Shown piece by piece: positions 9,418 to 61,378 of a DNA stretch of 64,000 bases. The position numbers and the translations under genes were made by a program. The stretch is from a virus. The DNA is taken from IMG/VR virus record IMGVR_UViG_3300045988_155520, positions 248,239 through 312,238 of that record; one strand, 5' to 3'. A model generated the notes under the pieces. The model ran no database searches. It saw only the letters and a program-made list of their open reading frames with translations, and was not told the origin of the DNA. Numbering within the stretch: the first letter of the stretch is position 1; each line of letters begins with the position of its first letter.

Positions 9418-9564
9418 AACTAAATTTAAATATATTATTTATAAATTATCTTCATACCAGTGACAACCACATCCATTAGAGTGTGTTGTAATGTGTTCGT
9501 CTGCCTTATTAAAAGTTCTCTTAAACTTGTTTACAAAGTTATAAAATATTTTCTTCATGATAAA

Positions 9565-15026: not shown

Positions 15027-15286
15027 AATTTTATCTTTTTAAATCTATAATATAAAGTTAAAGAAAATATATTATTTTGCGTTTATAAAATTATCTATCA
15101 GTACTTCTGTTTTTAATATCTTTATCATAATCCAAATAACTGGAAAACATTCCATTTTTAATAATATCGAAAAGTTGTTTCTTTATAATTTTCTCTTTTT
15201 GTTTCGTATAATTCATAATTTTCTTGTTTTAAATTATATTCTACAAAGTTATAAAAAATATATCATATAATCAAATTTTATATAAT

Positions 15287-15328
15287 AAAAAAAGTTAATT
15301 CGCAAGAATTTTCATCAAACGAATTAAC
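15287..15328 (-). terminator. hairpin + T-run terminator after 15338..15712
   Basis: gttaattcg-17 nt-cgaattaac followed on the minus strand by a T-run. Confidence 0.55.
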
Positions 15329-37594: not shown

Positions 37595-37690
37595 GGGTCT
37601 GTATAAGTGACTGATATATAAGTGTTTATATTGAAAATAAAATTCAAAAAACAGCCTTTATCAATCAGTTTTACATCTCTTCTATTCATT
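37595..37690 (-). other. conserved ~95-nt leader/scaffold-like segment of module A
   Basis: The ~45 nt nearest the repeat (tctgtataagtgactgatatataagtgtttatattgaaaataaaa) are almost identical to 44180-44225 and recognisably related to 59597-59640. Confidence 0.6.
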
Positions 37691-38914
37691 TTTATTTTTA
37701 AAATATTCTCTAAAATTGAAAGCGCAATGTTCGTCTGATGTATATTCCATTATATCTCCAATTGTATATGTATCTTGGATTGGTTTTGGTAGAACTTTAT
37801 AAAGAGTATTAAAAGTTTCAGTTGAACTTAAACCTGTGATGTTTTGAAAACACTCTGATATATCTGAAATAGAAAGACGATTTGCTTGTGTATAATATTT
37901 GTAGTCGTGGACATATCTTCTCTTACGTACTTGGTTCAGATTGCTCTTCGCTTCTTCCATAGTTTCACCTTTTCCCCAATTATCATTTTCATCAGTTATA
38001 ACAATGTATTCTTTATTATTGTAAAAATGTCTTACTTTAAACACATTATTATTTTGTTCAATTATTTCACTGAAAAACCCATTATAATCATTATTAAAAT
38101 ATTCTTTTCCATTAATTTTCCATGTAACTCCTAAATCTTTTAATACCCACAATTCTCTATTTTCTCTACTAAAGTGTTCATATTGTGAATTACGTTTAGG
38201 TTTGAATAACCAAGGTTTATCTACAATCAATTTACGTGTTGGACACTTAAATAATGATAGGTCCCGTAAACTTTCGGGAGTTCCTTTTATAGAATCTATA
38301 GCAAGAAATTCTTCTGGGAAACGAATCCTATTATTAGGTAAAATTATATTTCTACAGATTAATCCATTTTGTAACTCACTTATATTACTCTCTGATAAAT
38401 CAATCGTATCGTACACAACTAAGTTTTCTGGAAGTTTATTCAAAGTCCCACTTTTTATAATTAGACTTCCTTTAATAATTAAATTTTTGGGTATTTCTTC
38501 AATAGATACATTATCAATAGATAAAGTTCCATTTATTTCGGTCCAGTCAGGTAATACTCTTAATGGCAAAAATGATAAATTGACACTTCCGTTTAATTTT
38601 AAGTTTGTTGGTAATGAAGTTATATAACAATATGAAATAGTGGTAACTCCGTTAAATGTTGTATGCTTACCAATCAATAGAATTTCACAACATTCAATAC
38701 AAATATCATCTCTCACATATTGGTTATCTGGAAGAAATACTAATCGGCACAACTTGATAGTTAAACAACCATTGATAGTTAAGTTGTTCGGTAGCCAAAC
38801 TTCATTTTTATGAGTAATCGTTATATCCCCATCACAAATGAAGCGTTCATCAATATATTGAAGTTCTTTATTATATTCTTCTTTGAATTTAAGTATAATT
38901 TCACTATTCGTCAT
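37682..38914 (-). CDS. divergent 20-residue LRR protein with related C-terminal domain
   Basis: LPxNLxIxGxLxI-type repeats. The C-terminal ...ITDENDNWGKGETMEEAKSNL...DTYTIGDIMEYT aligns with LITDGEGHWSHGATLAEAKSDL...EKYTIREIIKLT of 10068..11537. Confidence 0.65.
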   Translation of the reverse strand: MTNSEIILKFKEEYNKELQYIDERFICDGDITITHKNEVWLPNNLTINGCLTIKLCRLVFLPDNQYVRDDICIECCEILLIGKHTTFNGVTTISYCYITSLPTNLKLNGSVNLSFLPLRVLPDWTEINGTLSIDNVSIEEIPKNLIIKGSLIIKSGTLNKLPENLVVYDTIDLSESNISELQNGLICRNIILPNNRIRFPEEFLAIDSIKGTPESLRDLSLFKCPTRKLIVDKPWLFKPKRNSQYEHFSRENRELWVLKDLGVTWKINGKEYFNNDYNGFFSEIIEQNNNVFKVRHFYNNKEYIVITDENDNWGKGETMEEAKSNLNQVRKRRYVHDYKYYTQANRLSISDISECFQNITGLSSTETFNTLYKVLPKPIQDTYTIGDIMEYTSDEHCAFNFREYFKNKNE

Positions 38915-45837: not shown

Positions 45838-47358
45838 CCCACAAAACTTTAGTTCGTGGGGGGAATTGAGCAACTATTCCTTCTTTCTGTTAATATACTT
45901 CTTCTTTTACTTATCAATCGTATATGTTTACAACTGATAGAACCTTTGTTTACTTTTGTTCCGTCAAGTCTTCTAATATCAAAGAAACCACTATCTCTTC
46001 TTCCAAATATATAATACAATTTCTTTTGATATTCAACTAAGTCAAATAATCTATACCCTTTTACCAAGAATGGTGATTGATTGAGTTTTTTCCTTCCACC
46101 TTTCAAGAAATTAGCCTTATGTATTTGTCTGTTCTGGCATCGCACTTTCTTTTGATAGAAATAATACCCAAGAGGTTTTGATTTAGGATTACCACTTATA
46201 CATCTTGCATCAACATGATGTTCTTTAGGTAGCCCATTAGTGATACGGGTGTTCTTTGTGATATATCCAAAAGTCATACTTACATTAGGATAGATATTCT
46301 TTAGTCTCTCGTATGTAGTCCAACGAGCAATCCCCATAAAGGCAGCATCCCTGAATGATGCGCCACGCTTTACCTTGATGTCTATTTTACCATTGTGATA
46401 TGCCTTGTGGCAAGATTCACATAGCGTGATTAGATTGCTTGGAGAGTTTCCTCCAGTTTTTCTACTTTCAATGTGATGTACATTCAAGATATGGTCTTTA
46501 CTCTTGCCTTTGCAATGTTGGCAAGTGTGGTTGTCTCTGAATAGCACATACTCACGCACATTAAAGAAACCAAGTTGTTCTCCTTGTTGATATTCTTTGC
46601 TTGATATACTTGGATTCTTAATCTTTTGTATGTCAAATGAAGCAGTTTCAACTATAATTTTAGTTATTGGCAGGAACTTATGTATCTTCTCTACAACGGT
46701 CAAGTGTGTTTGAATCTTATTCTCAACAGATGGAGCTAACCAACCTTTGTATTTTGAAGATACTCTGTTGTTAAAACGAGCCTTACGATAACGTAATCTA
46801 TTTCTACGAGTTCTTCTTTGTTCTCTACGAGTAGATAGTTTATCTACAATGTCATTTCTCAGTTCTACATCTGCTGCATACAATTCCTTCTTACTTGTTG
46901 TTGCGGATATGCCGATATGCTTACTACCAGCATCTACACCCAAACTTATGGGCTGAACGAAATGAGTTGTTTCATAATCCAATCGAATTGTGAATGGAAT
47001 ACGACATATAACGTGGGCAAGACCATTTTTCAATAATCTTCTCACTTTGCCAAATCTTTCAGTAGGCATTAGTGCTTGTCCATCTTTGTTAATTACGTAA
47101 ACCATTCGTTTTGCTTATTTTTTATTTTTACTGTAAGTCGGATTTCTCCGTTAAATGCTCATCGTCAATGTTATGGAGAGGTTTATATATTAGTAACACT
47201 ATTCCTACCTCACAGAATTGTTTAATCACTAACCTTAGAGCAAGGGGCTTGAGCAAACACCCACTTGGTAACTATATATTCTCTCCTAACGTAGCACTCG
47301 AAGTGCTTAGACTAATCAACTTGGGCTTTTTCAAGCCCACAAACCTTTAACCTGTGGG
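45838..47358 (-). mobile_element. IS200/IS605-family IscB element without tnpA
   Basis: Bounded by related hairpins: cccacaaaactttagttcgtggg (45838-45860) and cccacaaacctttaacctgtggg (47336-47358). It encloses iscB and a structured upstream region. Confidence 0.6.
45849..47105 (-). CDS. iscB: IscB RNA-guided nuclease (RuvC + HNH)
   Basis: PLMP-type N-terminus (DGQALMPT), RuvC-I LGVDAGSKHIG, Arg-rich bridge helix RREQRRTRRNRLRYRKARF, RuvC-II IIVETASFD, HNH CQHCKG...NVHHIESRKTGGNSPSNLITLCESCHKAYH, RuvC-III EHHVDA. Confidence 0.85.
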   Translation of the reverse strand: MVYVINKDGQALMPTERFGKVRRLLKNGLAHVICRIPFTIRLDYETTHFVQPISLGVDAGSKHIGISATTSKKELYAADVELRNDIVDKLSTRREQRRTRRNRLRYRKARFNNRVSSKYKGWLAPSVENKIQTHLTVVEKIHKFLPITKIIVETASFDIQKIKNPSISSKEYQQGEQLGFFNVREYVLFRDNHTCQHCKGKSKDHILNVHHIESRKTGGNSPSNLITLCESCHKAYHNGKIDIKVKRGASFRDAAFMGIARWTTYERLKNIYPNVSMTFGYITKNTRITNGLPKEHHVDARCISGNPKSKPLGYYFYQKKVRCQNRQIHKANFLKGGRKKLNQSPFLVKGYRLFDLVEYQKKLYYIFGRRDSGFFDIRRLDGTKVNKGSISCKHIRLISKRRSILTERRNSCSIPPTN

Positions 47359-47375
47359 TAGTGACAACATTAATA
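47106..47375 (-). ncRNA. putative IscB omega RNA (scaffold plus 5' guide)
   Basis: About 250 nt directly upstream of iscB, GC-richer than the surroundings. It contains several hairpins (cccacagg..tttgtggg, gggcttgaaaaagccc, agcacttcgagtgct) and a long-range GGAGAG/CTCTCC complement. The position matches known IscB systems. Ends were not mapped. Confidence 0.5.
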
Positions 47376-47520: not shown

Positions 47521-47550
47521 AAAAAAACGAAGCTACCAAATTATAGCTCC
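47521..47550 (-). terminator. hairpin + T-run terminator after the macro-domain gene
   Basis: ggagcta-loop-tagcttc followed on the minus strand by ttttttt. Confidence 0.5.
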
Positions 47551-47564
47551 GTTTTTAACATTAT

Positions 47565-48023
47565 TTAATTTAATGGTTCATATAGATAAATCTCACATTC
47601 TAAATCTTGTAATTTATCAAGAATCATTTTGTGAACTGTATTGTAATCTAATTTACCATTAGTACATCCCAGTGCAGGAATAGCAATTGATTTAATATTT
47701 CTTTGAACAATTTCTCTTTTTAAAGCATCTAAACCATCTTTTATATAAGAATATTCAGATGGATACTTCCAATGAATTTTAGTTGGGAAATTAATGATAA
47801 TTTTCTTATCAGTGAATAATGTACCTTCTTCTTTGGTAATGAACATTTTACCAATTACCACTTCATTTTTACTACACGCTTCTTTATAAAGTTCAAAGTT
47901 CTTAGGAAATTTTTTCTTAAACTGGAGGGCAATACCTTTACCCATAACACCAACACAGTTAACAGTGTTAACCAAGGCTTCTGCATCACTCTCCAATAAA
48001 TTTCCATTTACATGGTGAATCAT
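47565..48023 (-). CDS. macro domain protein (ADP-ribose binding/hydrolase fold)
   Basis: GNLLESDAEALVNTVNCVGVMGKGIALQFKKKFP is the canonical macro-domain N-terminal signature. Confidence 0.75.
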   Translation of the reverse strand: MIHHVNGNLLESDAEALVNTVNCVGVMGKGIALQFKKKFPKNFELYKEACSKNEVVIGKMFITKEEGTLFTDKKIIINFPTKIHWKYPSEYSYIKDGLDALKREIVQRNIKSIAIPALGCTNGKLDYNTVHKMILDKLQDLECEIYLYEPLN

Positions 48024-48029
48024 ATGTTA

Positions 48030-48569
48030 CTATTGATTAAACTCAGACAATTTCTTTCGCAACTCGTTCAATTCTGTTTCCTTCTTCTTAAGCTCTTCAA
48101 CTTCCTTGAGTTTCTGACGATAATCCTGCATTGTCTTTTCGTACTCTTGTTTACGCTTTGTAGACATATCTTTTGCTACGGTAAACTTCATCTTTTTCCT
48201 ATCTTCAAGATATTCATGGAGAAGTTTGGAATTACGTGCATCTTCAGGAATAGAAAGCATGTATGAAGAACTATCTGTATCATTCTTTGATGACACATTA
48301 ATCATTAAGGTATCATTTGTGTACTTATGATTAATCAGGTCGGTTTCCTTGTTATAATCAACTACAACTGAATATGTGGTATCATCTTCATTCCATTGTT
48401 TCTTCAAACCGAATAATGAACCAATGCCTCCACAGGTTTTATCGAAACCTGTTTCACAAGCACTCCTTACACCTTTATGTAAATCTTTCTTTTTATCCAT
48501 TTCCCAAACACTTTTAAATACATCTTCAAGAGTTTTTGGAGTCGTAAAAATTAAATCTTCTAATCTCAT
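48030..48569 (-). CDS. hypothetical protein, C-terminal coiled coil
   Basis: ORF track. Confidence 0.5.
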   Translation of the reverse strand: MRLEDLIFTTPKTLEDVFKSVWEMDKKKDLHKGVRSACETGFDKTCGGIGSLFGLKKQWNEDDTTYSVVVDYNKETDLINHKYTNDTLMINVSSKNDTDSSSYMLSIPEDARNSKLLHEYLEDRKKMKFTVAKDMSTKRKQEYEKTMQDYRQKLKEVEELKKKETELNELRKKLSEFNQ

Positions 48570-48634
48570 AACTTTATATATTTTATTAATAAATTATTTT
48601 TTTTTGATTTCATTATTACAATATCTGTGCCAAA

Positions 48635-49816
48635 TTATTCAGATAAATGCAAATCACTCATGGCTTTATCAAATTCTTTTGGGTCTCCCATGTGTTTGCC
48701 TATATCATCACTAATTTTGATACAATTCTCCCATGGGTCCTTGCTACTATATCTTGCTTTTGATAATTTCATAACAATATTTGCTGGCTTATAATCTTTA
48801 ATATCTGTATCACAAGTTAGATTTGTTCCAATTCCAGCTGATACCATAATACGACCATTAAAGTAATCATGAATTTCTTTGTACTTTTCAAATGTAAGTG
48901 CATTTGAGAAGATAAGTAATTTGGTCTTCGGGTCAATACCTAATTCTTGTAAACGTTTAATAATCATATTACCAATCTTAAACTCATCACCACTGTCTTG
49001 TCGGAAACCTCTCAAAAGCAAAGCTTGTTGTAGAGTTAAGGTTTTAAGGAAAGATTCGGTAGTATAGGTATCAATTAGCGCTGTACCCAAATTGCCTTCA
49101 TATACGTCAATCCAATCCTCAAGACCCATATAGTTTGCACGCTTATAGCCATACACAGCTGCGTGGAACATCATCCATTCGTGAGGGAAAGTTCCAGTAG
49201 GACACATGTGGTGTTTCTTTGCCAAATATACATTACTTGTTCCAGCACATACAGGGCACTTTTCTTTTAATCTTTTAACTACTTCATTCTGCACATTAAA
49301 ACTATATCGTCTACGTGTTCCAAATTCAGAAAAACCGAGATTATTCATATTGGCATAAGAAATCTTATCTTCTAATTTTAACATGGTTTTCTCCATATTA
49401 ATCTTATTTCCTAATACTCGATTTCTTACTTCTGCATATGTGGCAAGAATAGCTATCTCATATAATGTAACACGATAGAGTTTATCAGTAACTTCACACT
49501 GGAAGACCCCATCATCATCCAGCCACATCTTAATAAGTTCTGGTTTGAAACGAAAAGTGCCTAACCATTCCCAATAATTCTCTGGAATGTAATCAATATT
49601 CTCAACACACCAATCTCTTTCTTCATTTGTAAGACGAATATTGGATAAGTTCTCAACCTGCAATTCCATTTCATCCATAAAGTTCGGATAATTTCTCCAA
49701 TCCTCTTTGTTTCTGTCGTTAAACTTAAACGTCCCTTCCGCTCTATTAAACTTATGGAAATAAGCGTATGAAGTACTGAATTTATACAAATCTGTATCTA
49801 AAATTGATTGAATCAT
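48635..49816 (-). CDS. pncB: nicotinate phosphoribosyltransferase
   Basis: LDTDLYKFS, FGTRRR, GTSN, GTFPHEW, RQDSGD, GIGTNLTCD and NIVMKL are colinear with E. coli PncB motifs. Confidence 0.8.
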   Translation of the reverse strand: MIQSILDTDLYKFSTSYAYFHKFNRAEGTFKFNDRNKEDWRNYPNFMDEMELQVENLSNIRLTNEERDWCVENIDYIPENYWEWLGTFRFKPELIKMWLDDDGVFQCEVTDKLYRVTLYEIAILATYAEVRNRVLGNKINMEKTMLKLEDKISYANMNNLGFSEFGTRRRYSFNVQNEVVKRLKEKCPVCAGTSNVYLAKKHHMCPTGTFPHEWMMFHAAVYGYKRANYMGLEDWIDVYEGNLGTALIDTYTTESFLKTLTLQQALLLRGFRQDSGDEFKIGNMIIKRLQELGIDPKTKLLIFSNALTFEKYKEIHDYFNGRIMVSAGIGTNLTCDTDIKDYKPANIVMKLSKARYSSKDPWENCIKISDDIGKHMGDPKEFDKAMSDLHLSE

Positions 49817-49827
49817 TTTTGTTTAAT

Positions 49828-50049
49828 TTAAATTGTTAATTCATTAATATCATTCAAATAATCTTTCCAATTTAGAACTCTATCAATAAGTGTACTTTCT
49901 TTAATATCATTTAGAGTTTCTTCATAACTGTCAATTAAATTATTCTTCTCATTGATTAAATTTTGTAATGTATAAACCTTATCTTGAAGTGCTTTTACAC
50001 TTTTTTCTAAACGTTCATATTCATCATATTCAAGTTCAATTCGTGCCAT
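49828..50049 (-). CDS. hypothetical coiled-coil protein
   Basis: ORF track. Confidence 0.45.
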   Translation of the reverse strand: MARIELEYDEYERLEKSVKALQDKVYTLQNLINEKNNLIDSYEETLNDIKESTLIDRVLNWKDYLNDINELTI

Positions 50050-50596
50050 AAGTTTTCTTTATGTTAAAATTCTTAAGTTTCTCTCCACCATCTATAGACG
50101 GGCAATAATCAATAAGGAGATTGAATTTATCTTCTCCATATACAAGGATACCATCTAATAAAGTCTTGTAAACACAAATATCACCAGCAATACCACAGAT
50201 ATCAATTTGGTCAATATTTTCGTCCTTAATAGTTGTGTACAACCATTTACGAGAATTATCATTGGAAAAGATAGAATATTCTTCTCTATCTGGGAAAACA
50301 CCTTTAGTAAGAACTTTGTATTCAATATTTAGTTCTCTTAGAGTTTGAATAATAGGTTCATAAACGGACGCACCATGAGTATAAGCGACACAATGCTTAG
50401 GCCACTCTCCATCATTAACCACAAAAGAACAATGATTCTCTGGATGCCAGTCGGCTGTAATAACCACAGTTTTGTAGTCATTGTGATTCTTAATGTATTC
50501 ACACAAAGCATTCATCTTTTGTTCAGCGTTATCCACAGGCAATGTTCCATTGATGAAATCATATTGTGGGTCAACAATCAAAAGTAATTTATTCAT
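50036..50596 (-). CDS. pncA: nicotinamidase (isochorismatase family)
   Basis: VDPQYDF, DWHPENHCSF, WPKHCV, LTKG and CGIAGDICV match the PncA catalytic Asp/Lys/Cys and metal-site motifs. Confidence 0.8.
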   Translation of the reverse strand: MNKLLLIVDPQYDFINGTLPVDNAEQKMNALCEYIKNHNDYKTVVITADWHPENHCSFVVNDGEWPKHCVAYTHGASVYEPIIQTLRELNIEYKVLTKGVFPDREEYSIFSNDNSRKWLYTTIKDENIDQIDICGIAGDICVYKTLLDGILVYGEDKFNLLIDYCPSIDGGEKLKNFNIKKTYGTN

Positions 50597-50608
50597 ATTA
50601 ATTTATTT

Positions 50609-51910
50609 TTAATGAATCTGATAATTTTCAATTAATTCAATGCATTCTTTTTTTGTTAAATCTGGATTCTTACATTGTTCTTCGTGTAGATAGTCAATAA
50701 GTGATTTTCTATCATTACCTGTAATATCTGTACGATACGAGAAAATTTCATTACCATCTATCGGAAGATAAATCTTAGCACTATCTTTTATTTTTAACCA
50801 CGTATTTATCGTTTCGTTATAAGTTTCTTCATCTGTAAAAACTCGATATACCCACAATGCATTATCTATGTTATGGTCACATTTCTTATATAATCTACGT
50901 AAAGATACTTCTAAATCTTCATCTTCTCTTCGGAAGTTTTTCCCTAATAATGCATTTTGCACATGCTTTATTATTACATTCGGTTGCTTTTGATGAGATA
51001 GAATAGTTTCACATGCACTATCTGTTTTGCAAAATGATAGAAGTATTGAAAAACGAGCATATAAACATGTAGGTGCTTGATTACATATAGTAACTATTTT
51101 ATCAAACATACTATTAAAGTTCTGTGAACATGGAACAAAACTTTGTACAAATAGTTCTGGAAGAATATGATATAAAATACCACTATCTTTTAGATAATAC
51201 AAACCATTAATACAGTTTTTATTGGATATTATTTTATTTAATTCATTACGTATTCTTTCTTTAGAGATAATCTTTATTCTTGAAGCGCATTCTTGTAATG
51301 ATTGCCATGTTTTATCTTCTATGTTCCAACCGTATCTATTTGCGAATCTAATAACTCTCATTATACGCAATGGGTCATCAAAGAAGACTATGTTAGGATT
51401 ATCATTTGTAGTTCTGATAACATGATTTTTCAAATCATCAAGTCCTTTTCCTGTAACATCTTCTACTTTATCTGTTGAGATATTGTAATATAATGCATTA
51501 ATGGTAAGGTCTCTTCTGAAAGCATCTTCTTCTAAACTTCCAAAACACGTTTCTGGATTACGTGATTCTGAGTGATATTGCTCTTTTCGTGTTTCTACAC
51601 TTTCAATAACAACATCAGAACATTCATCACAATTCTTTAAATGAAAACTTGCGGTACCATACTTAGGATATACAGTAGGATTAGAATCACTATGACTTTT
51701 ATCCAGCTCTGTTAAAGTGTTTGCTAAATCTATTCCACCAGACGGAAGATTAACTACAATATCTAAATCATTAGACGTTTCTCCCATTAATGTGTCACGT
51801 ACAAATCCACCTACAACATACGTAACACCTTCAAATTTGGTTCCTTTGATAAGTGTACGTATTGTGTTGATGGTTTTTGCTATCTTTTTATCTTTTATTT
51901 CAAATTTCAT
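50609..51910 (-). CDS. cca: tRNA nucleotidyltransferase (CCA-adding enzyme / poly(A) polymerase family)
   Basis: GGFVRDTLMG..NDLDIVV and RRDLTINALYYN are head-domain motifs. Confidence 0.8.
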   Translation of the reverse strand: MKFEIKDKKIAKTINTIRTLIKGTKFEGVTYVVGGFVRDTLMGETSNDLDIVVNLPSGGIDLANTLTELDKSHSDSNPTVYPKYGTASFHLKNCDECSDVVIESVETRKEQYHSESRNPETCFGSLEEDAFRRDLTINALYYNISTDKVEDVTGKGLDDLKNHVIRTTNDNPNIVFFDDPLRIMRVIRFANRYGWNIEDKTWQSLQECASRIKIISKERIRNELNKIISNKNCINGLYYLKDSGILYHILPELFVQSFVPCSQNFNSMFDKIVTICNQAPTCLYARFSILLSFCKTDSACETILSHQKQPNVIIKHVQNALLGKNFRREDEDLEVSLRRLYKKCDHNIDNALWVYRVFTDEETYNETINTWLKIKDSAKIYLPIDGNEIFSYRTDITGNDRKSLIDYLHEEQCKNPDLTKKECIELIENYQIH

Positions 51911-52877
51911 TATTATTTACTTTTACCAATGGGTTTAAGAATTTCGCTAACTCATGTTCGTAATAAAAAACAAGGTCATTAGCCGTTACATCTAAACTAT
52001 TAATTAATTTGTAAATCTGTGGATAGTATGTTGATGGAATACACGCATAAGACACTTCATCTGTTACATGATTCAATTTAGTGAACACATTTACTTTTGC
52101 TTCTGATGTAGCAAGTTTAAATTGATGTAATTTAAGAGTAAAATAATTAATACGTACTTCAAAGCCAAGTGTGTCTTTAATAATTTGTTCCATCATCTTT
52201 AAAGATTTATCACACAGTAAATGGGTCAAGACGTTATTATCATTATCTTTCACTTTGTAGATAATTTCATCTGTGCACATAGAATATGGTTCTAAATAGT
52301 CGGTCAGATTGAACTTATCGTTGAGTGTCTTATATATTTTATTAATAATAATTTTTTCAACACTAATAGTCTTTTTTGGATTAAGTTTTCCAAAGATAAC
52401 TTGTCTTGTGTATTTTGACTTCTTGATATAATCACTATCAGTGAACTTACTGATAAAGTCTTCATACGTGTCAGTATTCAGCACTATTTCAGAATCAACA
52501 TACTTAAGTGCTTGAAAGTTTGCTTTCTTTAAATCAACACTTACAAAACTATTTCCATCTTGTTCTTCAGTATACAAATTCCGTTGTTGAACTAATGGCT
52601 TTTCTGTTTTAATATCACTATCATTGAATTTTTTAAATGCTTCCGAGTTGTAACATGAAGTAACAATTTCATCTCTTATTTGCGCATAGGTATCTAAGAA
52701 TGCCCTATAACTACCACAATAGTTAGTATCAATGTAATCAAGAAGATTATTATAATCTTGAGTAGCACCACATAGTTCAAGACGCTCTGTAAAGTAAGGG
52801 TCTTGTATTACTTGTATAGGTAGGTTAAAATCCTTGAGGAAACGTTTTCTAAGTTGCTTTGTAACTAAATCTTCCAT
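51900..52877 (-). CDS. hypothetical protein
   Basis: 325-aa ORF overlapping the cca start. A -7 box TACCTTTG lies at 52903-52910. Confidence 0.5.
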   Translation of the reverse strand: MEDLVTKQLRKRFLKDFNLPIQVIQDPYFTERLELCGATQDYNNLLDYIDTNYCGSYRAFLDTYAQIRDEIVTSCYNSEAFKKFNDSDIKTEKPLVQQRNLYTEEQDGNSFVSVDLKKANFQALKYVDSEIVLNTDTYEDFISKFTDSDYIKKSKYTRQVIFGKLNPKKTISVEKIIINKIYKTLNDKFNLTDYLEPYSMCTDEIIYKVKDNDNNVLTHLLCDKSLKMMEQIIKDTLGFEVRINYFTLKLHQFKLATSEAKVNVFTKLNHVTDEVSYACIPSTYYPQIYKLINSLDVTANDLVFYYEHELAKFLNPLVKVNNNEI

Positions 52878-52953: not shown

Positions 52954-53718
52954 TTAATTTCTTCTACTATATTCGTATATACTAACAAGGTCATCTGGTT
53001 TAAGTTGTTTTATAAAGTTATTATAAAACTTTTTAATCCATTCCTGTTCTTTTCCCGTATCATCAATATCTTTCCATCCATTTTCATCCACATAAGCATA
53101 ATTCCAGTAAGAACAAGAATAAGTTACGTAATCTTCTTTGTTTTTAAAGTTTGAAAAATATTCCTTTTTATCATTCATCGCATGATATATAGAAGTTTCC
53201 TCTGGAGTTTCTGGGTCACGTCCTTCTACTATCATTTCCCATGTAGCATTATATAACGATTCATCACGTGTCATTACTGAGTCCCAGTCAATATCCTTGT
53301 TTCTTGCTTGATAAGTTTCTTTGCCATCTTTTGTAATAATTGGTACAGCAAAATTCTTACCTAATGAGCAATTATCCCATTTTCCGTTTGGATTGTCTTC
53401 ACATAACGCATTACCTTCTCCGTCATAAAACATACCATCTGTAACACTTTGGTAATACTCGAAAGATGTCATATTATTTATAATCTTCTTTCTTTCAGTC
53501 AGCATATCAATACTAAACTGGCTGAGTCCAAATTTCTTTGGGTCTGACAAAATTGCTTCGATAGATTTAATAGTTGCACTCTGCATCTTTTTTGCATCAA
53601 GATACTTGTATTTAACGTATGGTTCTACTTTTAAGGATTTATCATATTTCTTCATCAACTTATCAGGTTCCTCTCCAATGACCATAGCGGTAAAGAATTT
53701 ACTTCCGTTTGTACTCAT
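52954..53718 (-). CDS. hypothetical protein
   Basis: ORF track. Confidence 0.5.
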   Translation of the reverse strand: MSTNGSKFFTAMVIGEEPDKLMKKYDKSLKVEPYVKYKYLDAKKMQSATIKSIEAILSDPKKFGLSQFSIDMLTERKKIINNMTSFEYYQSVTDGMFYDGEGNALCEDNPNGKWDNCSLGKNFAVPIITKDGKETYQARNKDIDWDSVMTRDESLYNATWEMIVEGRDPETPEETSIYHAMNDKKEYFSNFKNKEDYVTYSCSYWNYAYVDENGWKDIDDTGKEQEWIKKFYNNFIKQLKPDDLVSIYEYSRRN

Positions 53719-53739: not shown

Positions 53740-53922
53740 TTAGTATGGGAAATTACCTGTACTTTCCTTATATATTTTCATTATATATTCAAATGAATTA
53801 GCAATACATTTATCTTCTTCTATAGATGTATTTTCTTCCAAATAATCTTTAAGGAAATTAAATATATCTCTATATGTTAAACTACATATTTCGTCTAACC
53901 ATTTCTTTTTATCATTATTCAT
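53740..53922 (-). CDS. hypothetical protein
   Basis: The start is moved to MNNDKKKW because a -7 box (53942-53949) lies inside the track ORF. Confidence 0.45.
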   Translation of the reverse strand: MNNDKKKWLDEICSLTYRDIFNFLKDYLEENTSIEEDKCIANSFEYIMKIYKESTGNFPY

Positions 53923-54020
53923 AAAAGTTTTTTTATCTATGCAAAGATACATAAATTTATTTGAATTAACAAACTTTTAGTAACTTTTTTATTAAAAAAA
54001 ATAGCACCACTGAATTATAG

Positions 54021-55352
54021 TTATTCAGCGATGCTAATGTTTTGTATTTCAACATGTATTTCTTTAAAATATTCTTCGTCTATTTTTAGATAACATTGAT
54101 TAAGTGCCATTAAAAATTCTTCTTTGCCATTAGAAGATAATGTTGTTTTAATACATATTAATGCATTAGGGTCATCCTCTTTAAGGTTTAAATCATAAAG
54201 AAAATATAGTTTTCGTTGTAAGGTTCCTTTTATTAAACGTTTATATAGAATTGTGTGTTGTATTAAACTTTGTGAAACTTTATCGTTTTCTGAACTTATA
54301 AGTAATCTATTATTACTATTATCAATGACTCGGACATTTTCATTTTCTCCCAATATACTCTTGATACTATTTTCTTCCCATTTATAATCAATAGGGTGGT
54401 TTAATCTGATAAAATCACTTATATTAATTCCTTTCTCATTGAAAACTTCATTGACATATTCATTTCCCTGTTCTATAATATTTAAATTATGTGTTGTATA
54501 GGCTTCTGTAAGTCCGAGTTCATCGTTAACTGTAAATGCAATATGTGATGTTTCTTCACTTTCTTTCTTTGAGAAATCAAATAAGAAATATTGTTTACTA
54601 TTGGTATCATTCACATACGACTCCCAACACGTTTTATTACAATTGAAACACCATTTGGTACGTCCTTCACTTCCTACTAACTTATTACAATCTTTATGCG
54701 ATGTTACATGTACTATAACTACATTGTCCTTGTTGTACACAATAGGAGAATTAGGTGTTGATTTAGTAACAAAACTTATGAAATCTTTTTTATTCCATTT
54801 ATAACTTAAATCCATACACCAAGTGAATACATCTAATAGTTCTGTAATATCATGGAGTGAAGAACATGTAGAAATAAAATTATTTAATTGTTCTTCTGGT
54901 AACTTCTGAAGTTTTGTAAATATTTTATTCCACTTTTTTAACTCTCTTTCTTTACTAATATTTAATATCGAACAATTCTCTAAATTTAGATATTCTTTCA
55001 ATAAATTTCTCTGTATTGTATTAAATTTATTAATGAAAGATTTAACATCGTAAATTAATTGAATGTTCTTTATTTCTTTCTTTAAAATTGTAATTGCATA
55101 ACGAGATGTATAAGCAGTAATAGTATGTTTACTTAATTGACATATCAACTGTTTATGTGACTTTGCCCATGCTAAAATACTCTTTATTTCCTCTACAGTG
55201 CAATATTTTGAATACACTGCATTAACTGCCCATAACTTATAATTTGGACTGTCATAGGTCAAAGAAATAAGTTCTTTGAATGTGTTATCCTCGTCTGTGT
55301 TTATATTGAGTTTGGTGATTAATGGATTTAATATTTTCTTTGAATAATTCAT
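54021..55352 (-). CDS. hypothetical protein
   Basis: 443-aa ORF. Confidence 0.5.
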   Translation of the reverse strand: MNYSKKILNPLITKLNINTDEDNTFKELISLTYDSPNYKLWAVNAVYSKYCTVEEIKSILAWAKSHKQLICQLSKHTITAYTSRYAITILKKEIKNIQLIYDVKSFINKFNTIQRNLLKEYLNLENCSILNISKERELKKWNKIFTKLQKLPEEQLNNFISTCSSLHDITELLDVFTWCMDLSYKWNKKDFISFVTKSTPNSPIVYNKDNVVIVHVTSHKDCNKLVGSEGRTKWCFNCNKTCWESYVNDTNSKQYFLFDFSKKESEETSHIAFTVNDELGLTEAYTTHNLNIIEQGNEYVNEVFNEKGINISDFIRLNHPIDYKWEENSIKSILGENENVRVIDNSNNRLLISSENDKVSQSLIQHTILYKRLIKGTLQRKLYFLYDLNLKEDDPNALICIKTTLSSNGKEEFLMALNQCYLKIDEEYFKEIHVEIQNISIAE

Positions 55353-55808: not shown

Positions 55809-56282
55809 CTATTTCTTTTTATATATCATAAATTTAAATTTGATGTTATTTTCTTCTTGGGTCAAAGACTCGTAAATATTTTTCCACTTACTATCTGAAA
55901 AAATATTTAAAGGAAAGTAACTATCCCCTTCTGTTTTATCTTCCACCAGCGTAATATATGCTTCACTAATCAGATTCTCATCTAAAAAAGCATTATAAAT
56001 GGAAGAACCACCGATAACAAATACGTCTTCATTCTTTATATTCAGATGACGCATTAATGTAATCGCTCCATTAATTGAATTAACGAAATGAACACTTGTG
56101 TCTCCAAATTTTTCTGTACATAATTTTGGATTAGACGTAAGGACAATGTTGGTCCTATTCTTAAGGGGCTTCTGATTTGGTAAAGAAAGATACGTATTCA
56201 TACCCATAATGACAGTGTTACCATCCGTAAACCGTTTAAAATTATCCATATCATTTGGAATATGGTAAAGTGAACTACACAC
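55809..56282 (-). pseudogene. folA: dihydrofolate reductase lacking about 20 N-terminal residues
   Basis: LYHIPNDMDNFKRFT aligns with PWNLPADLAWFKRNT. VIMGMNTY, PLKNRTNIVLT, VIGGSSIY and GDSYFP are also present. The beta-strand 1 / IG segment is absent, and the frame hits a stop within the TnpB element end. Confidence 0.7.
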
Positions 56283-56420
56283 AAGTTGAAGACTTGTGTG
56301 CTTCGGGTTTCACTGAGGAATGGTCTTTCAAATGATTGACTCTTACTTCCTCTCCACCCGTGTAATCGACAGTCCCTGCCGATTTTGTATTATTTAAACC
56401 GAAACGAAGAATATTGATTG
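56261..56420 (-). ncRNA. putative TnpB omega RNA (3' end of tnpB plus flanking guide)
   Basis: Position by analogy with IS605 TnpB systems. A perfect 8-bp hairpin cacacaag-tcttcaa-cttgtgtg (56278-56300) sits at the element end. Extent was not mapped. Confidence 0.4.
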
Positions 56421-57483
56421 CTGCATTCACATCACGGTCATGATGACTATGACAATGAGGACACTCCCATTCACGAACCGACAAATCTTTAATGTCTTTG
56501 TAAACATACCCACAGGTACTACAAGTCTGTGAGGATGGGAAGTAACGGTCTATCTTCACGACCTTCTTGTCGTTCCATTCCGCCTTATAGATAAGTATGG
56601 AAACAAAATGTCCCCAACTTGCATCAGAAATGGACTTGGCAAGACGATGATTTCTCGTCATACTCTTAACATTCAAATCTTCGATACAAATTGTATCATA
56701 TCTTCGAACAAGAGAGATAGAGCACTTATGCAGATAGTCGGCACGACTATTGGAAATCTTTTCATGAAGTCTGGCAACTTTGAGTTTTTGGTTTTCAAAC
56801 CCTTTGCTGCCTTTAACTTTGCGAGAAAGATGTTGTTGTGCTTTAGCAAGTTTGCACTCATACCTTTTTGTATATCGGTTATTATTAAAAGTTTCTCCAT
56901 CAGAAGTGGTAAGCAAATCCTTTAAACCCATATCTACACCAATTGACTTGTCAGTCTTCTTAATCGGTGTAATGTATTCTTCTTCCGTGAAGACGGAAAC
57001 AAAATACTTTCCACTTGGTGTCTTGGTAATAGTTACCTTCCCTATTTTACCTTTTATCTCACGGTGTACACGACACTTAATACCTTCCTTGAACTTGCGT
57101 ATGAAAAGTCTACCACATGCTACAGATGCAAATTTTGGAACGGTAAAACTATTTTTGGAGTGTTTGGATTTGAATTTAGGAAACTTAGCACGCTTCTTAA
57201 AGAAATTATTATAGGCTGATTCAAGACTGCGGATTGCAAACTGCAATATTTGGGCATTTACCTCCTTTAACCATGCAGTTTCTTCCTGCTTCTTTAATGT
57301 GGTAAGCGTTTTACACTGCGCATAGAAGTTGTCGCTATTACCAGTGAGCCTATATTGTTCTTTACGTTGATTGAGAAAGTAATTGTACACAAAGCGAGAA
57401 CATCAAAAGTGCTTTGCCAGCAATTCGGTTTGTTCCCTGTTTGGATACAGTCTGAACCTGTATGTTCTGTTAATCTTTCTCAT
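56275..57483 (-). pseudogene. tnpB: IS605-family TnpB with in-frame TGA at codon 27
   Basis: ATG at 57483 gives MRKINRTYRFRLYPNREQTELLAKHF, then TGA (57403-57405), then CSRFVYNY... continuing into the track ORF. RuvC-I IGVDMGLKDL, RuvC-II ICIEDLNV, and CSTCG...CPHCHSHHDRDVNAAINI are present. Confidence 0.85.
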
Positions 57484-58555: not shown

Positions 58556-59173
58556 TTAATATACAAAGTTATCTTTTTGATGAAATTCTTGACGTAACTC
58601 AAGTAATCTTGTGTGAAATCCTAATTTAAAATTCTCCAGAAATAAACGTAATTTCATTTTAAAAGGTATAATACCTGCTTTCACAGCAGCACCTTTAATC
58701 AGTTTATCATGATTAAACGCCCAACGCATTTTATCTATATTTTTTAGGTTAACCCAAGCAATCGCACCTACTTCGTTCTTCTCCATATTCTGTTTTGAAA
58801 ACTTAAAGTCATCAATAATTGCATGCTGATACACCGCATAATATCTAAATGTAATATTCTGACGCTTATCATCATTAGGGTCATCATTAAAAGACCAAAA
58901 CTTAATTAAATGTGATGGTACTTTTATTCCTGTCTCTTCAAGTGTTTCACGCTGTGCTGCTTCTTTGGTTGTTTCGTTATAATCAAGATAGCCACACTGA
59001 CAATTCCATGCATTAATCAATTCTGGGTCAGGCGTACCTTCGCCACGCTGTGAAGCCAAGACGCACCATTCACCACGCAAGTTCTTGCAAAACACAAACA
59101 TGACAACGCTTACTGAACGGCTAATCCAATGTTCTTGTCCTTTATTGTCTTTTAACGAAAAATTATTCATCAT
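58556..59173 (-). CDS. Nudix hydrolase
   Basis: Perfect Nudix box GYLDYNETTKEAAQRETLEETGI (GX5EX7REUXEEXGU). Confidence 0.8.
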   Translation of the reverse strand: MMNNFSLKDNKGQEHWISRSVSVVMFVFCKNLRGEWCVLASQRGEGTPDPELINAWNCQCGYLDYNETTKEAAQRETLEETGIKVPSHLIKFWSFNDDPNDDKRQNITFRYYAVYQHAIIDDFKFSKQNMEKNEVGAIAWVNLKNIDKMRWAFNHDKLIKGAAVKAGIIPFKMKLRLFLENFKLGFHTRLLELRQEFHQKDNFVY

Positions 59174-60166: not shown

Positions 60167-60730
60167 TTAATGATATAAATTCAACTCTTTTATCAACTTT
60201 TCATTTTCAGCATTTATATATGGAAAAAAAATTTTCTTTTCTTTTACCATTCGTCTTATGTATGTCGAGGAAATAGGAATAACAATATCTTGTTCTATTG
60301 GTATCGCATAATCTGGAATTTCATCCGTCTTATTTCTTTTTAATCCAACAATAGAAAAATATGGTTCTATATCTGAATTATAATTTTTCCATTTCGGTAT
60401 GTCATTAACACAATCAGAACCAGCTATGATAAATAACTCATTGTCTTTGTATTTCTCTCTAAGAAGCGATAATACTTTATATGAATAGTTTGTACCATCA
60501 ACCAATAATTCATCCTTAGAAAGGCAGCATTTATCTCCAAAATGTGAAATTGCATTCTCTATCATTTGGCAACGATAAGCAAAATCAGTAGCTTTAGAAT
60601 CCTTCCATGGATTCTGAACAGTTGGTACAACTATCACTTTGTCAAAGTCACTATTCAGTACACTATTAATCATTTGCACATGACCAATATGTATCGGGTC
60701 GAAACTACCAAGCAAAAATCCTATTTTCAT
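60167..60730 (-). CDS. nadD: nicotinate/nicotinamide mononucleotide adenylyltransferase
   Basis: GSFDPIHIGH (HxGH), NPWK, SYKVL and ISSTYIR match NadD motifs. Confidence 0.8.
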   Translation of the reverse strand: MKIGFLLGSFDPIHIGHVQMINSVLNSDFDKVIVVPTVQNPWKDSKATDFAYRCQMIENAISHFGDKCCLSKDELLVDGTNYSYKVLSLLREKYKDNELFIIAGSDCVNDIPKWKNYNSDIEPYFSIVGLKRNKTDEIPDYAIPIEQDIVIPISSTYIRRMVKEKKIFFPYINAENEKLIKELNLYH

Positions 60731-60733
60731 ATT

Positions 60734-61378
60734 CTATCTAATGTTTATAAAGTCACACATAAGACATTCTTCTTTATCATTATTTATATATTCCTGATAA
60801 TTTTTCTTATTGTGAAATTTTGCATACAACCAAGGATACCAATCATCTGCCATATTCAGAATCATATTAATTCCTTTTTCAAAAATTGCTTTACCAAAAA
60901 ATCTTGTAGTACTTGAATATAAGTCTAAAAGAGGAATATCATCATGTTTAAAATCATGTATTCTTACCCAATCATACTTTCTTCTTCCGCCAAAGAAATA
61001 AACATTTGTAAATAAAGTTTCAATAGAAGTACAAAACTTATCAAATAGTATTTCTTTCCAAGCAGAATTTTTCTCTCGCTTTGATAGATTATCTTCTTCA
61101 AGTATAATTCTTACATAGGAATCTGTCTTACTATTAAGATAATGTAAAAACTCGTACACACCATTTAGGTCAATGTTATATACCATTGCACCATGTCGTA
61201 CTTCTAAGTTACCATCATCGCTAAACCACACTCTAAGGTCAAATACTCTAATATTATAATTTTCGTATTGTTCCTTATAATTCACTTTCTGACATTTAGC
61301 GGTAAAAATGAAAGGATACATATACCACTTCTTCGGTCTAAGATAACTTAAACTATTATGAGAACCTAATAATTTCAT
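60734..61378 (-). CDS. possible PLC-like phosphodiesterase (PI-PLC X-domain-like)
   Basis: The N-terminal LLGSHNSLSY and FDLRV resemble the catalytic His region of the PLC-like TIM-barrel family. Weak. Confidence 0.3.
   Translation of the reverse strand: MKLLGSHNSLSYLRPKKWYMYPFIFTAKCQKVNYKEQYENYNIRVFDLRVWFSDDGNLEVRHGAMVYNIDLNGVYEFLHYLNSKTDSYVRIILEEDNLSKREKNSAWKEILFDKFCTSIETLFTNVYFFGGRRKYDWVRIHDFKHDDIPLLDLYSSTTRFFGKAIFEKGINMILNMADDWYPWLYAKFHNKKNYQEYINNDKEECLMCDFINIR

Follow-up and report, generated by a model that had tools for sequence, protein, structure and literature searches.

The explanation that we judge likely overall is that this phage carries a complete deamidating NAD+ salvage route, which would sustain NAD+ during infection, especially against NADase-based defences. 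The window, as we call the whole 64-kb stretch of DNA analysed here, amounts to roughly one fifth to one third of the phage genome, which exceeds 200 kb and probably reaches ~300 kb; it is best explained, with fairly good confidence, as part of a jumbo phage that infects Bacteroidales of the human mouth. The nearest cellular relatives of its PncB are found in Bacteroidales MAGs (60-64% identity), and 19 copies of the Bacteroidota-type promoter motif TTTG-N20-TATCTTTG were counted where 5.8 would be expected, 18 of them on the coding strand, observations that together point to a Bacteroidales host or origin. The window showed none of the features of nucleus-forming phages (chimalliviruses).

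A sequence-only reading of the window had proposed a set of genes for nicotinamide salvage by the deamidating route of Preiss-Handler type, and both family assignments and motifs support it. The open reading frames for PncA, PncB, NadD, the Nudix hydrolase and a macro-domain protein were all recovered on the minus strand, at coordinates identical to those of that reading. PncB exceeds curated cut-offs (TIGR01514, 368 versus 269.55; NF003704, 397 versus 379), retains the FGTRRR and GTSN motifs and the His of 'PHEW' (H212, among the PncB invariants), and finds 2im5 as its top PDB match (322 bits). PncA passes Pfam Isochorismatase (40.5, cut-off 27), falls below the strict PRK11609 cut-off (75 versus 174) and matches a PHROG of unknown function; all eight of its eight PDB matches are nicotinamidases or annotated nicotinamidase-type proteins, and its triad D9/K98/C141 and metal ligands D49/H51/H68 are invariant in relatives 27-73% identical, as well as in both alleles. 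The 3' half of the gene (50357-50058) is a mosaic patch with ~71% nucleotide identity versus ~90% in the flanks. A search for the catalytic substitutions that had been raised as a possible sign of inactive enzymes returned none, and every catalytic residue checked is intact.

NadD scores 107.2 against TIGR00482, just under the cut-off of 112.45. The remaining enzyme, NadE, which the sequence-only reading had expected from the host or from elsewhere in the genome, is indeed encoded by the same strain beyond the right end of the window, on ENA contig ERZ989715 k127_18313. Since this contig matches the window at 100.000% identity along stretches of 11.5 kb and 21.2 kb, the phage encodes the full route from nicotinamide through nicotinate, NaMN and NaAD to NAD+. 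NadE is also detected in L034 (tblastn, E = 5.6e-34) and shares IMG/VR contigs with NadD and PncB; its family profile matches NH3-dependent NAD synthetases, and it is predicted to be the short ammonia-dependent form. The Nudix box, previously described as perfect, is complete but has Thr at one 'U' position and is thus near-perfect. Profile matches to 2fml, 3gz8/3gz5 and 2qjt place the protein in the ADP-ribose-binding (NrtR / NadM-Nudix) clade, and some of its top structural relatives are proteins that regulate rather than catalyse; it is probably an ADP-ribose pyrophosphatase, a substrate assignment drawn from clade membership only.

Table. NAD+ salvage genes and surrounding features, in window positions
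Feature	Position	Strand	Remarks
Terminator-like hairpin	47523..47556	-	14-bp stem then T-rich tail; 9 nt past macro stop codon; closes PncA/PncB/macro unit
Orphan DarG2-type macrodomain (AdfM-like), predicted	47565..48023	-	Passes Pfam Macro; NCBIfam DarG 240 bits
Hypothetical 179-aa protein	48030..48569	-	Lineage-restricted: 28 homologues only, all at least 74% identical
PncB, ATP-dependent nicotinate phosphoribosyltransferase (nicotinate + PRPP -> NaMN)	48635..49816	-	Above curated NCBIfam cut-offs
Hypothetical 73-aa coiled-coil protein	49828..50049	-	Overlaps PncA end by 14 nt; 91-94% conserved in sister strains
PncA, nicotinamidase (nicotinamide -> nicotinate + NH3)	50036..50596	-	Pfam Isochorismatase and active-site residues
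tRNA CCA-adding nucleotidyltransferase	50609..51910	-	Pfam PolyA_pol 9.4e-27, PolyA_pol_RNAbd 1.9e-16
Hypothetical 325-aa protein (unk325)	51900..52877	-	3' end overlaps CCA gene start by 11 nt
Hypothetical 254-aa protein	52954..53718	-	50-53% identical in L023, L078, L081
Small hypothetical ORF, first gene of the unit	53740..53952	-	Sister contigs call a 60-aa product
Bacteroidota-type promoter motif TTTG-N20-TATCTTTG	53942..53973	-	Head of PncA/PncB unit; directly after hairpin 54036-54002
Terminator-like hairpin	54002..54036	-	14-bp stem then T8 run; closes upstream unit, after 443-aa hypothetical gene
Nudix hydrolase	58556..59173	-	Nudix box residues 61-83, Pro at +16; own unit with hypothetical 115-aa gene
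NadD, nicotinate-mononucleotide adenylyltransferase (NaMN + ATP -> NaAD)	60167..60730	-	Motifs GSFDPIHIGH, ISSTYIR
NadE, 293 aa, PF02540	window-equivalent ~73.3-74.2 kb		Outside window, ~9.3 kb past right end; SGGIDS PP-loop

The placement of PncA, PncB and the macro gene in one operon stands, but the unit is larger than first described: nine genes from ~53950 to 47565, adding the CCA-adding enzyme and four hypothetical genes, with boundaries suggested by the flanking hairpins and promoter motif. NadD and the Nudix gene do lie nearby, as had been stated, yet each sits in a separate unit of its own, that of NadD closed by a hairpin at 59854-59832, and the NAD genes of this phage occupy four transcription units over ~25 kb. 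Within the PncA/PncB unit, the first small ORF probably starts at an internal Met ~30 nt downstream, and the order of the 254-aa protein, unk325, the CCA-adding enzyme and PncA is kept in distant relatives. The 254-aa protein has no match in Pfam, PHROG or PADLOC and was ruled out as a NadE relative (hhalign probability 0.5%). None of the 680 homologues of unk325 carries a Pfam domain; its AlphaFold2 model (pLDDT 93.7) finds family B DNA polymerases as top Foldseek matches (E = 5e-4, TMq 0.36-0.43), suggesting a right-hand-polymerase-like fold. The CCA-adding enzyme matches the NCBIfam CCA-adding families below their cut-offs. The model of the 179-aa protein (pLDDT 72.5) shows a beta-sandwich and, after it, a long C-terminal helix; it resembles alpha-crystallin/p23-like proteins only weakly (E = 1.6e-3). 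The window also holds general auxiliary genes (DHFR, tRNAs, methyltransferases), and counter-defence-type neighbours comprise the AdfM-like macro gene, a Pnkp-RNA ligase fusion, the CCA-adding enzyme and tRNA genes.

In related phages the same genes usually form a compact PncA-PncB-NadE-NadD-Nudix cassette. At least 451 PncB loci from phages can be counted in IMG/VR, and among 59 diverse loci examined for neighbours within 10 kb of PncB, PncA is present in 54, the Nudix gene in 49, NadE in 47 and NadD in 45, with the five-gene linkage persisting down to ~48% PncB identity. The set is far beyond chance: dozens of diverged phage contigs carry these genes together, and their contiguity elsewhere justifies the earlier step of tying Nudix and NadD to PncA/PncB. 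The five genes are contiguous in the uncultured phage MT835470 (53% identity for PncB, 43% for PncA, 45% for Nudix, 37% for NadE and 31% for NadD), and in the cultured Sinorhizobium phage Phosso (PV764938) a single annotated cluster fits NadE, PncB, a MutT-like Nudix, NMNAT and a PncA-like hydrolase into 6 kb; the protein families in these phages and in dozens of IMG/VR contigs are the same five, contiguous there and dispersed here. The gene set is genuine and appears active, and it represents a dispersed instance of a cassette common in large phages.

The novelty implied by calling a deamidating route a variant of the phage pathways described so far is not upheld. Partial sets of NAD genes occur in the cultured phages Atu_ph07 and Bacillus phage G, and these, Phosso and the IMG/VR loci are joined by the phage Preiss-Handler clusters that Li et al. 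(Microbiome 2024, PMC11662467) report from a KEGG-based genome survey without experiments, e.g. Kuafu_71 with pncB-nadD-nadE, with phage pncA also mentioned. Like the phage studied here, the 'NAD-jumbo phages' described there are jumbo phages, many with Bacteroidota hosts, in which PncB, NadD and NadE would make NAD+ from nicotinate; unlike here, where the genes are dispersed and PncA/PncB sit inside a CCA-adding/tRNA-repair unit, the five-gene cassette is not described in the searched text of that paper. Our literature search found no experiment tying phage PncA/PncB/NadD/NadE to NADase defences.

The view that known phage NAD-rebuilding pathways all use Nampt-like enzymes is dated. NARP2 does pair Nampt with Nmnat, as in NadV/NatV of Vibrio phage KVP40 (Osterman et al. 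2024), but NARP1 (Adps and Namat) couples pyrophosphorylated ADP-ribose straight to nicotinamide, and NARP3 (PnuC and NadR) imports nicotinamide riboside. All restore NAD+ drained by defence NADases from phage-encoded genes, and by analogy they offer a precedent for the purpose proposed here; neither Nampt nor the NARP1/NARP3 families (Adps, Namat, PnuC, NadR) were found in the window, and the chemistry of all three systems differs from that of the present route. As in NARP2, NAD+ would be rebuilt from nicotinamide and PRPP, and NatV likewise carries a Nudix domain belonging to this ADP-ribose clade (2qjt-type match); whereas NARP2 proceeds in two amidated steps via NMN, the present route would deamidate first, take four steps via NaMN and NaAD, and require NadE and ammonia. 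[quoted passage not shown] The phage Nudix is nearest the NrtR-type Nudix domain of NrtR-regulated cycles but, unlike NrtR, keeps an intact catalytic box and lacks the winged-helix DNA-binding domain.

We propose that PncA would convert nicotinamide into nicotinate, that PncB would drive nicotinate and PRPP into NaMN at the expense of ATP, and that NadD would adenylate NaMN to NaAD for ammonia-dependent amidation to NAD+ by NadE. The Nudix hydrolase probably cleaves ADP-ribose to AMP and ribose-5-phosphate, which a host PRPP synthetase could turn into PRPP for PncB; no gene for such a synthetase turned up in the window. The compact cassette has been pulled apart into the four units seen here, with PncA/PncB co-transcribed with the CCA-adding enzyme and the polymerase-like protein, and the likely purpose would be to keep NAD+ available during infection, especially by rebuilding it from the nicotinamide and ADP-ribose freed by NADase-type abortive-infection defences. 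The route costs more ATP than NARP1/NARP2 and still requires host PRPP, its scattered genes are not co-regulated as one unit, and PncA and NadD score under the strictest curated equivalog cut-offs.

A possible, if somewhat unlikely, alternative is plain auxiliary metabolism, with NAD+ made to serve the phage itself (its NAD-dependent ligase, its ADP-ribosyltransferases and the redox demand that a long jumbo-phage infection brings) or for a poorly salvaging host and no anti-NADase role. Li et al. 2024 favour metabolism, pointing to the many NAD-consuming genes that 'NAD-jumbo phages' carry and to pathways complementing the host's; the scattering of the NAD genes among general auxiliary genes and the acquisition of PncB from the host lineage fit this reading, and NAD-consuming phage enzymes may lie in the remainder of the genome. 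However, searching the window turned up no NAD-dependent ligase, ADP-ribosyltransferase or sirtuin, the immediate neighbours are of counter-defence type, and the cassette starts from nicotinamide and includes an ADP-ribose-type Nudix, thereby covering both NADase products. The metabolic and counter-defence readings are compatible rather than mutually exclusive.

The sequence-only reading had also linked the macro-domain protein to ADP-ribose recycling. That it acts within the NAD pathway, recycling free or conjugated ADP-ribose for NAD+ resynthesis, is improbable, even though its gene closes the transcription unit of PncA and PncB and soluble ADP-ribose derivatives are substrates of some macrodomains. 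Its strongest PDB matches are DarG macrodomains (5m3i, 6e-42; 5m31, 1e-40), with the catalytic Lys conserved, and PADLOC DarG matches at 1.1e-72 over model positions 1-145 of 329. It is 38% identical (E = 4e-28) to AdfM, the PhiKZ gp104 protein that counters DarTG2 and was shown by experiment to strip DarT2 marks from DNA (Cell Rep 2026, PMC13309987). Furthermore, the gene is strain-variable, being absent in L009-13, L015, L016, L019 and L020, which all keep PncA and PncB, and none of the 59 diverse loci carries it in the compact cassette. DarG2/AdfM likeness and absence from many sister strains thus argue that the macro gene is independent of the NAD route; it is probably an accessory DNA ADP-ribosylglycohydrolase directed against DarT2. 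Like AdfM, it is encoded by a jumbo phage as a DarG-type macrodomain that stands alone, and it retains the Asn altered in the AdfM mutant N23A as well as the Lys corresponding to DarG K80; unlike AdfM, it belongs to another phage lineage and host phylum, its gene is strain-variable, and its activity is predicted.

Slightly less probable again is that the genes supply NAD+ for tRNA repair, in which a Tpt1/KptA-type 2'-phosphotransferase would use NAD+ and free nicotinamide while the macro protein clears ADP-ribose-1''-phosphate. Distant relatives keep the CCA-PncA-PncB order, interspersed with Rnl2-type RNA ligases and a phosphoesterase, and an NAD/KptA/macro link in phage RNA repair was described by Iyer et al. 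2022. Against this, neither KptA/Tpt1 (PF01885) nor a 2H phosphoesterase was found in the window, unk325 resembles polymerases and not ADP-ribosyltransferases, the macro protein is specifically DarG-type and missing from many strains, and most phages carry the NAD cassette without RNA-repair neighbours, a CCA-adding gene lying near PncB in only 9 of the 59 loci. Finally, that these are passenger or decaying host genes without a selected phage function, or that the PncA-like protein is an isochorismatase-family hydrolase of another substrate, is highly improbable: the sub-threshold PncA and NadD scores, the uninformative PncA PHROG and the divergent patch in its 3' half are countered by the invariant triad and nicotinamidase-specific metal site, the uniformly nicotinamidase-type PDB matches, the deep five-gene linkage and an operon 89-100% conserved across many independent metagenomes.

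All five open reading frames named in the sequence-only reading (PncA, PncB, NadD, Nudix and macro) lie where it placed them, on the minus strand, and its interpretation is supported in part: the NAD pathway stands, and the role given to the macro protein does not. A sigma-70 promoter scan proved uninformative (78 sites against 89.8 expected), and we used in its place the Bacteroidota-type motif TTTG-N17-23-TAnnTTTG, which occurs at 19 sites against 5.8 expected, 18 of the 19 lying on the coding strand. Together with terminator-like hairpins, these motifs suggest the transcription-unit boundaries given in the table. The unit carrying PncA and PncB comprises, in order, a small ORF, the uncharacterised 254-aa and 325-aa proteins (unk254 and unk325), a CCA-adding enzyme, PncA, a 73-aa coiled-coil ORF, PncB, the uncharacterised 179-aa protein (unk179) and macro, with several of the nine genes overlapping by 11-14 nt.

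Features of the NAD salvage region and its surroundings (window coordinates)
Feature	Position	Strand	Remarks
TnpB-family gene (OrfB_IS605 / Cas12f1-like TNB)	31622-33241	-	
715-aa fusion: polynucleotide kinase, metallophosphoesterase, T4 Rnl1-type RNA ligase	33466-35613	-	phrog_8238 (phage-specific), 1.7e-188
Complete IscB element	45849-47365	-	immediately follows the terminator-like hairpin of macro
IscB-like ORF, 418 aa	45849-47105	-	RRXRR 9.6e-62; HNH
HEARO/omega RNA, full length	47150-47365	-	precedes IscB ORF; RF02033, 127.7 bits
Terminator-like hairpin, strong	47556-47523	-	end of PncA/PncB unit
Macro	47565-48023	-	last gene of PncA/PncB unit
PncB	48635-49816	-	above both NCBIfam cut-offs, full length
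PncA	50036-50596	-	Pfam Isochorismatase; triad and metal site kept
unk325	51900-52877	-	overlaps start of CCA-adding enzyme gene
Promoter motif	53973-53942	-	head of PncA/PncB unit
Terminator-like hairpin, strong	54036-54002	-	upstream bracket of PncA/PncB unit
TnpB-family gene (OrfB_IS605 / Cas12f1-like TNB)	56275-57390	-	
Nudix	58556-59173	-	complete Nudix box; unit headed by promoter motif 59754-59723
NadD	60167-60730	-	GSFDPIHIGH and ISSTYIR; unit ends at hairpin 59854-59832
214-aa protein	60734-61378	-	directly upstream of NadD within NadD unit

PncB scores 368.2 against a cut-off of 269.55 for TIGR01514 and 396.8 against 379 for NF003704, and aligns end to end with the solved nicotinate phosphoribosyltransferase 2im5 (322 bits). 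Its FGTRRR (165-170) and GTSN (192-195) motifs and H212 (PHEW), presumably the phosphohistidine as in Salmonella PncB, do not vary across 7 diverse PncB sequences from phages. PncA reaches only the Pfam Isochorismatase cut-off (40.5 against 27) and lies below the curated equivalog NF008623/PRK11609 (75.4 bits against 174), and all 8 of its 8 PDB matches are nicotinamidases or are annotated as nicotinamidase-type. Residues D9, K98 and C141 align with the catalytic triad of P. horikoshii PncA and are invariant in 7 phage sequences (the comparison set drew on both alleles of the window phage, two distant relatives, the uncultured fecal phage MT835470 and Sinorhizobium phage Phosso). A metal site of Asp, His and His separates nicotinamidases from other isochorismatase-like hydrolases, and the corresponding ligands, D49 and H51 (DWHPENH) and H68 (WPKHC), are likewise invariant in the compared phage sequences. 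The sequence-only reading had named substituted catalytic residues as one finding that would overturn the pathway; the motifs checked in PncA, PncB, NadD and Nudix are all intact and do not refute it.

The 3' half of PncA (50058-50357) is a local mosaic patch with ~71% nucleotide identity to IMG/VR sister strains between flanks of ~90%, which is why PncA is only 73% identical in protein among these strains, against 97-98% for PncB. Both PncA alleles keep the catalytic residues, and the patch may have arisen by recombination or diversifying selection.

With a score of 107.2, NadD narrowly misses the TIGR00482 threshold of 112.45; its two nucleotidyltransferase motifs, (H/T)xGH and ISSTxxR, are present as GSFDPIHIGH (residues 8-17) and ISSTYIR (153-159), both aligning with B. 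subtilis NadD (1kam). For the final step, no NadE lies within the 64-kb window according to a Pfam inventory that includes 83 further ORFs. When the NadE proteins of E. coli, Phosso, MT835470 and LR756501 served as queries, a gene resembling NadE was retrieved at one edge of a locus from a sister strain (E = 5.6e-34), and the IMG/VR contigs with this gene also carry NadD and PncB. The sequence-only reading had proposed seeking nadE elsewhere in the genome, and a 293-aa PF02540 gene is indeed found on the human oral metagenome contig ERZ989715 k127_18313 (ENA), ending ~9.3 kb past the right end of the window; this contig matches the window at 100.000% identity across stretches of 21.2 kb and 11.5 kb. 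The PP-loop SGGIDS is present in the NadE gene of retrieved locus L072 (9854-10738), and the NadE family profile matches NH3-dependent NAD+ synthetases, its top match being inflated by the presence of E. coli NadE in the alignment. With PncA, PncB and NadD in the window and NadE beyond it, the phage encodes in full the route from nicotinamide through nicotinate, NaMN and NaAD to NAD+.

The same genes recur as a compact cassette in other phages. MT835470 carries PncA, PncB, NadE, NadD and Nudix contiguously over ~5.5 kb, its Nudix protein being 45% identical to that of the window; Phosso has a single annotated cluster of NadE, PncB, a MutT-like Nudix, NMNAT and a PncA-like hydrolase; in Atu_ph07, PncA-like, NadD-like and ADP-ribose pyrophosphatase genes stand side by side ~3 kb from PncB; and clustered NAD genes are found also in the 735 kb megaphage LR756501 and in phage G. 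A PncB-alignment scan of IMG/VR returned at least 451 coding stretches, from which the non-close loci longer than 15 kb gave a sample of 59. Within 10 kb of PncB, these loci carry PncA in 54 cases, Nudix in 49, NadE in 47 and NadD in 45, and the linkage with NadE argues for NaMN, rather than NMN, as the probable preferred substrate of NadD. The typical order is PncA(-0.6 kb)-PncB-NadE-NadD-Nudix; four loci show an intermediate order, CCA-Nudix-PncA-PncB-NadE-NadD, and the unk325-CCA-PncA-PncB order of the window recurs, with RNA ligases interleaved, in relatives of 317-413 kb. The assignment of NadD and Nudix to the PncA/PncB set of the window, despite a gap of 8-10 kb, rests chiefly on this linkage elsewhere; the window set is a dispersed copy of a widespread phage cassette. 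An IMG/VR scan with the window NadD as single query found only close relatives and is uninformative on the presence of NadD in the relatives of 317-412 kb. Among GenBank phages, all matches to a nucleotide search with the 4.3 kb region were short and weak, and no close relative is therefore represented there.

The Nudix box GX5EX7REUXEEXGU is complete at residues 61-83 of the window protein (GYLDYNETTKEAAQRETLEETGI), with Thr at one 'U' position; of 12 cassette representatives, 11 keep the catalytic box. A Pro some 16 residues past the Nudix box is a signature of ADP-ribose pyrophosphatases, and Pro stands at +16 in all 11 of the 11 cassette representatives. The family profile finds its best matches in 2fml and 3gz8/3gz5, which we take to be NrtR-type ADP-ribose-binding Nudix proteins, and also matches the NadM-Nudix enzyme 2qjt; named ADP-ribose pyrophosphatases match it only weakly, and the NCBIfam matches of the window protein point in the same direction as the NrtR and NadM-Nudix matches. 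The cassette protein is probably an ADP-ribose pyrophosphatase.

The window has a GC content of ~30%, nearly all of its genes lie on one strand, and eight tRNA genes stand in an array. An identical PncB protein is encoded on 23 metagenomic contigs, human oral metagenomes among them, and also on IMG/VR viral contigs of up to 222 kb. Phage contigs measure 210-222 kb in IMG/VR and 293-312 kb in several independent ENA/Logan assemblies, five of them 301-310 kb, and pncB, nadD and nadE are carried by IMG/VR contigs of 210-222 kb and by ENA/Logan contigs of 301-312 kb. From lineage proteins on contigs of up to 222 kb and of 301-312 kb, we infer a genome of more than 200 kb, probably ~300 kb. The closest cellular PncB homologues all come from Bacteroidales MAGs (60-64% identity), and the most likely host belongs to the oral Bacteroidales. 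Many of the 25 Bacteroidales MAG loci retrieved (L035-L059) start at contig position 1, less than 6 kb from PncB, which suggests that PncB in MAGs often adjoins assembly-breaking sequence.

Among the known phage NAD+ reconstitution pathways, NARP2 (Nampt and Nmnat) differs from the window set in its phosphoribosyltransferase, which is of the Nampt/NadV type, whereas by curated equivalog the window's single phosphoribosyltransferase is of PncB type, with no other NAPRTase or Nampt among the 83 further ORFs. The Pfam inventory of the window includes no PRPP-synthetase-like Adps and no Namat, PnuC transporter or NadR family member, the components of NARP1 and NARP3, and NARP3, which consists of PnuC and NadR, is ruled out as the same pathway. 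The phage corresponds to the 'NAD-jumbo phage' with Preiss-Handler pathway of Li et al. 2024, since pncB, nadD and nadE are all found here in a genome of more than 200 kb. In that work, complete NAD+ synthesis, by salvage or by the Preiss-Handler pathway, is reported for 174 of 668 gut jumbo phages; a cluster of pncB-nadD-nadE is described there, and pncA is noted in phages (PMC11662467). The Aravind-lab survey lists only NadV, NadM and NadR, and Osterman et al., who describe NARP1 and NARP2, make no mention of PncA, PncB or NadE. The gene content is known already from genome surveys and from annotation in cultured phages, and does not constitute a new kind of system; we found no experimentally tested deamidating phage route, or 'NARP4', in the literature.

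We consider it likely that the window phage carries a complete deamidating NAD+ salvage pathway with an ADP-ribose-type Nudix protein, a dispersed version of a common cassette that probably maintains or restores the NAD+ of infected Bacteroidales cells. Its selective value may lie in counter-defence against NADases or in general metabolic support. NAD+ depletion is among the commonest outcomes of bacterial anti-phage immunity, and of the three phage NAD+-rebuilding pathways demonstrated by experiment, none uses deamidating Preiss-Handler chemistry. The window phage encodes this chemistry in full, and large-phage contigs in the hundreds carry the compact five-gene cassette, many of them recovered from Bacteroidota-dominated gut, rumen and oral samples. 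A defined and testable candidate for a fourth reconstitution route is now available. More tentatively, and with somewhat more doubt than belief, we propose that the cassette is this fourth, deamidating pathway ('NARP4'), that it forms the main NAD+ counter-defence of large Bacteroidota phages, and that in the window phage its first two steps sit in an anti-abortive-infection operon. Both products of defence NADases would then be reused for NAD+, nicotinamide by way of nicotinate, NaMN and NaAD, and ADP-ribose by way of AMP and ribose-5-phosphate, and PncA and PncB would be wired with tRNA end repair and an anti-DarT macrodomain in one operon.

The macro protein had been cast in the sequence-only reading as a possible ADP-ribose recycler of the NAD pathway, a role contradicted by its DarG-type matches (5m3i, 6e-42; 5m31, 1e-40), by its absence from many sister strains that retain PncA and PncB, and by the lack of a macro gene beside PncB in any of the 59 diverse loci. 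Its K82 (FPTK), equivalent to the catalytic Lys (K80) of T. aquaticus DarG, and its N22 (TVN), equivalent to the Asn mutated in AdfM N23A, are conserved, and the protein is 38% identical to PhiKZ AdfM, which removes DarT2 ADP-ribosylation from phage DNA, as shown by experiment (PMC13309987). The DarG matches cover only positions 1-145 of 329 in PADLOC (1.1e-72) and 1-148 of 338 in the NCBIfam model, and macro stands alone, with neither the DarT-binding C-terminal domain nor an adjacent DarT toxin, its neighbours being unk179 and the IscB element. The most plausible reading of macro is an accessory anti-DarT2 factor apart from NAD+ salvage, and it provides a candidate anti-DarT2 macrodomain in a Bacteroidales phage.

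None of the three uncharacterised proteins supports the presence of an NAD-consuming RNA-repair enzyme in the operon, and the window's Pfam inventory, 83 further ORFs included, contains no KptA, PRPP synthetase, NAD-dependent ligase or ART. The unk325 family counts 680 proteins, none with a Pfam domain, and its adjacency to the CCA-adding enzyme is kept in relatives only 38-40% identical. The unk325 model (pLDDT 93.7) shows a right-hand-polymerase-like fold in only 325 aa, with best structure matches to family B DNA polymerases (E ~5e-4, modest TM-scores); this fold rules out a KptA/ART-type NAD-consuming RNA-repair enzyme, and the protein may be an undescribed small nucleotidyltransferase acting with tRNA repair. 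That unk254 might be a degenerate NadE was prompted by a weak tblastn match between its homologue in retrieved locus L023 and E. coli NadE (E = 0.004) and is ruled out by an hhalign probability of 0.5%. Confined to the lineage of the window phage, unk179 occupies the place of NadE in the compact cassette; it lacks a PP-loop and matches nothing in Pfam, PHROG or PADLOC, which sets aside NadE or a known anti-defence protein, and its model combines a beta-sandwich and a long helix with only weak matches, to alpha-crystallin/p23-like beta-sandwiches. The kinase-phosphatase-ligase fusion, the CCA-adding enzyme and the tRNA genes point to a heavy investment in tRNA repair.

Elements of the IS200/IS605 type are active in this lineage of jumbo phages. 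The IscB element at the macro site is present in the window and in retrieved loci L003/L007 and absent in L001, L002 and L004-L006, and this patchiness at one site among strains indicates a recent insertion in the phage genome. Sister strains differ in the TnpB copy between DHFR and the next gene, which is present, absent or of another form. Next to the homologue of a 410-aa window gene (37682-38914), sister strain L006 (Logan SRR36639762) carries at 14858-15321 an 805-aa Cas3-like gene (Cas3_HD, DEAD, ResIII, Cas3-like_C) where the window has a different gene.

The 214-aa protein beside NadD has a PI-PLC X-domain-like Pfam match (6.5e-06, 26.3 bits against a cut-off of 23.1), and a larger paralogue-like ORF lies near NadE in L072 (1147-2067). 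Also upstream of NadE in that locus are, by eye, a sigma-70-family-like protein (4419-5315) and, just before the gene, a 550-aa protein with a vWA-like C-terminal region (8142-9794). Positions 1-23000 of the window hold four YopX-family paralogues, a BspA-type leucine-rich-repeat protein, a crAss001_48-related protein and two DNA methyltransferases (N6_N4 and Dam-type), the remainder being small ORFs without family.
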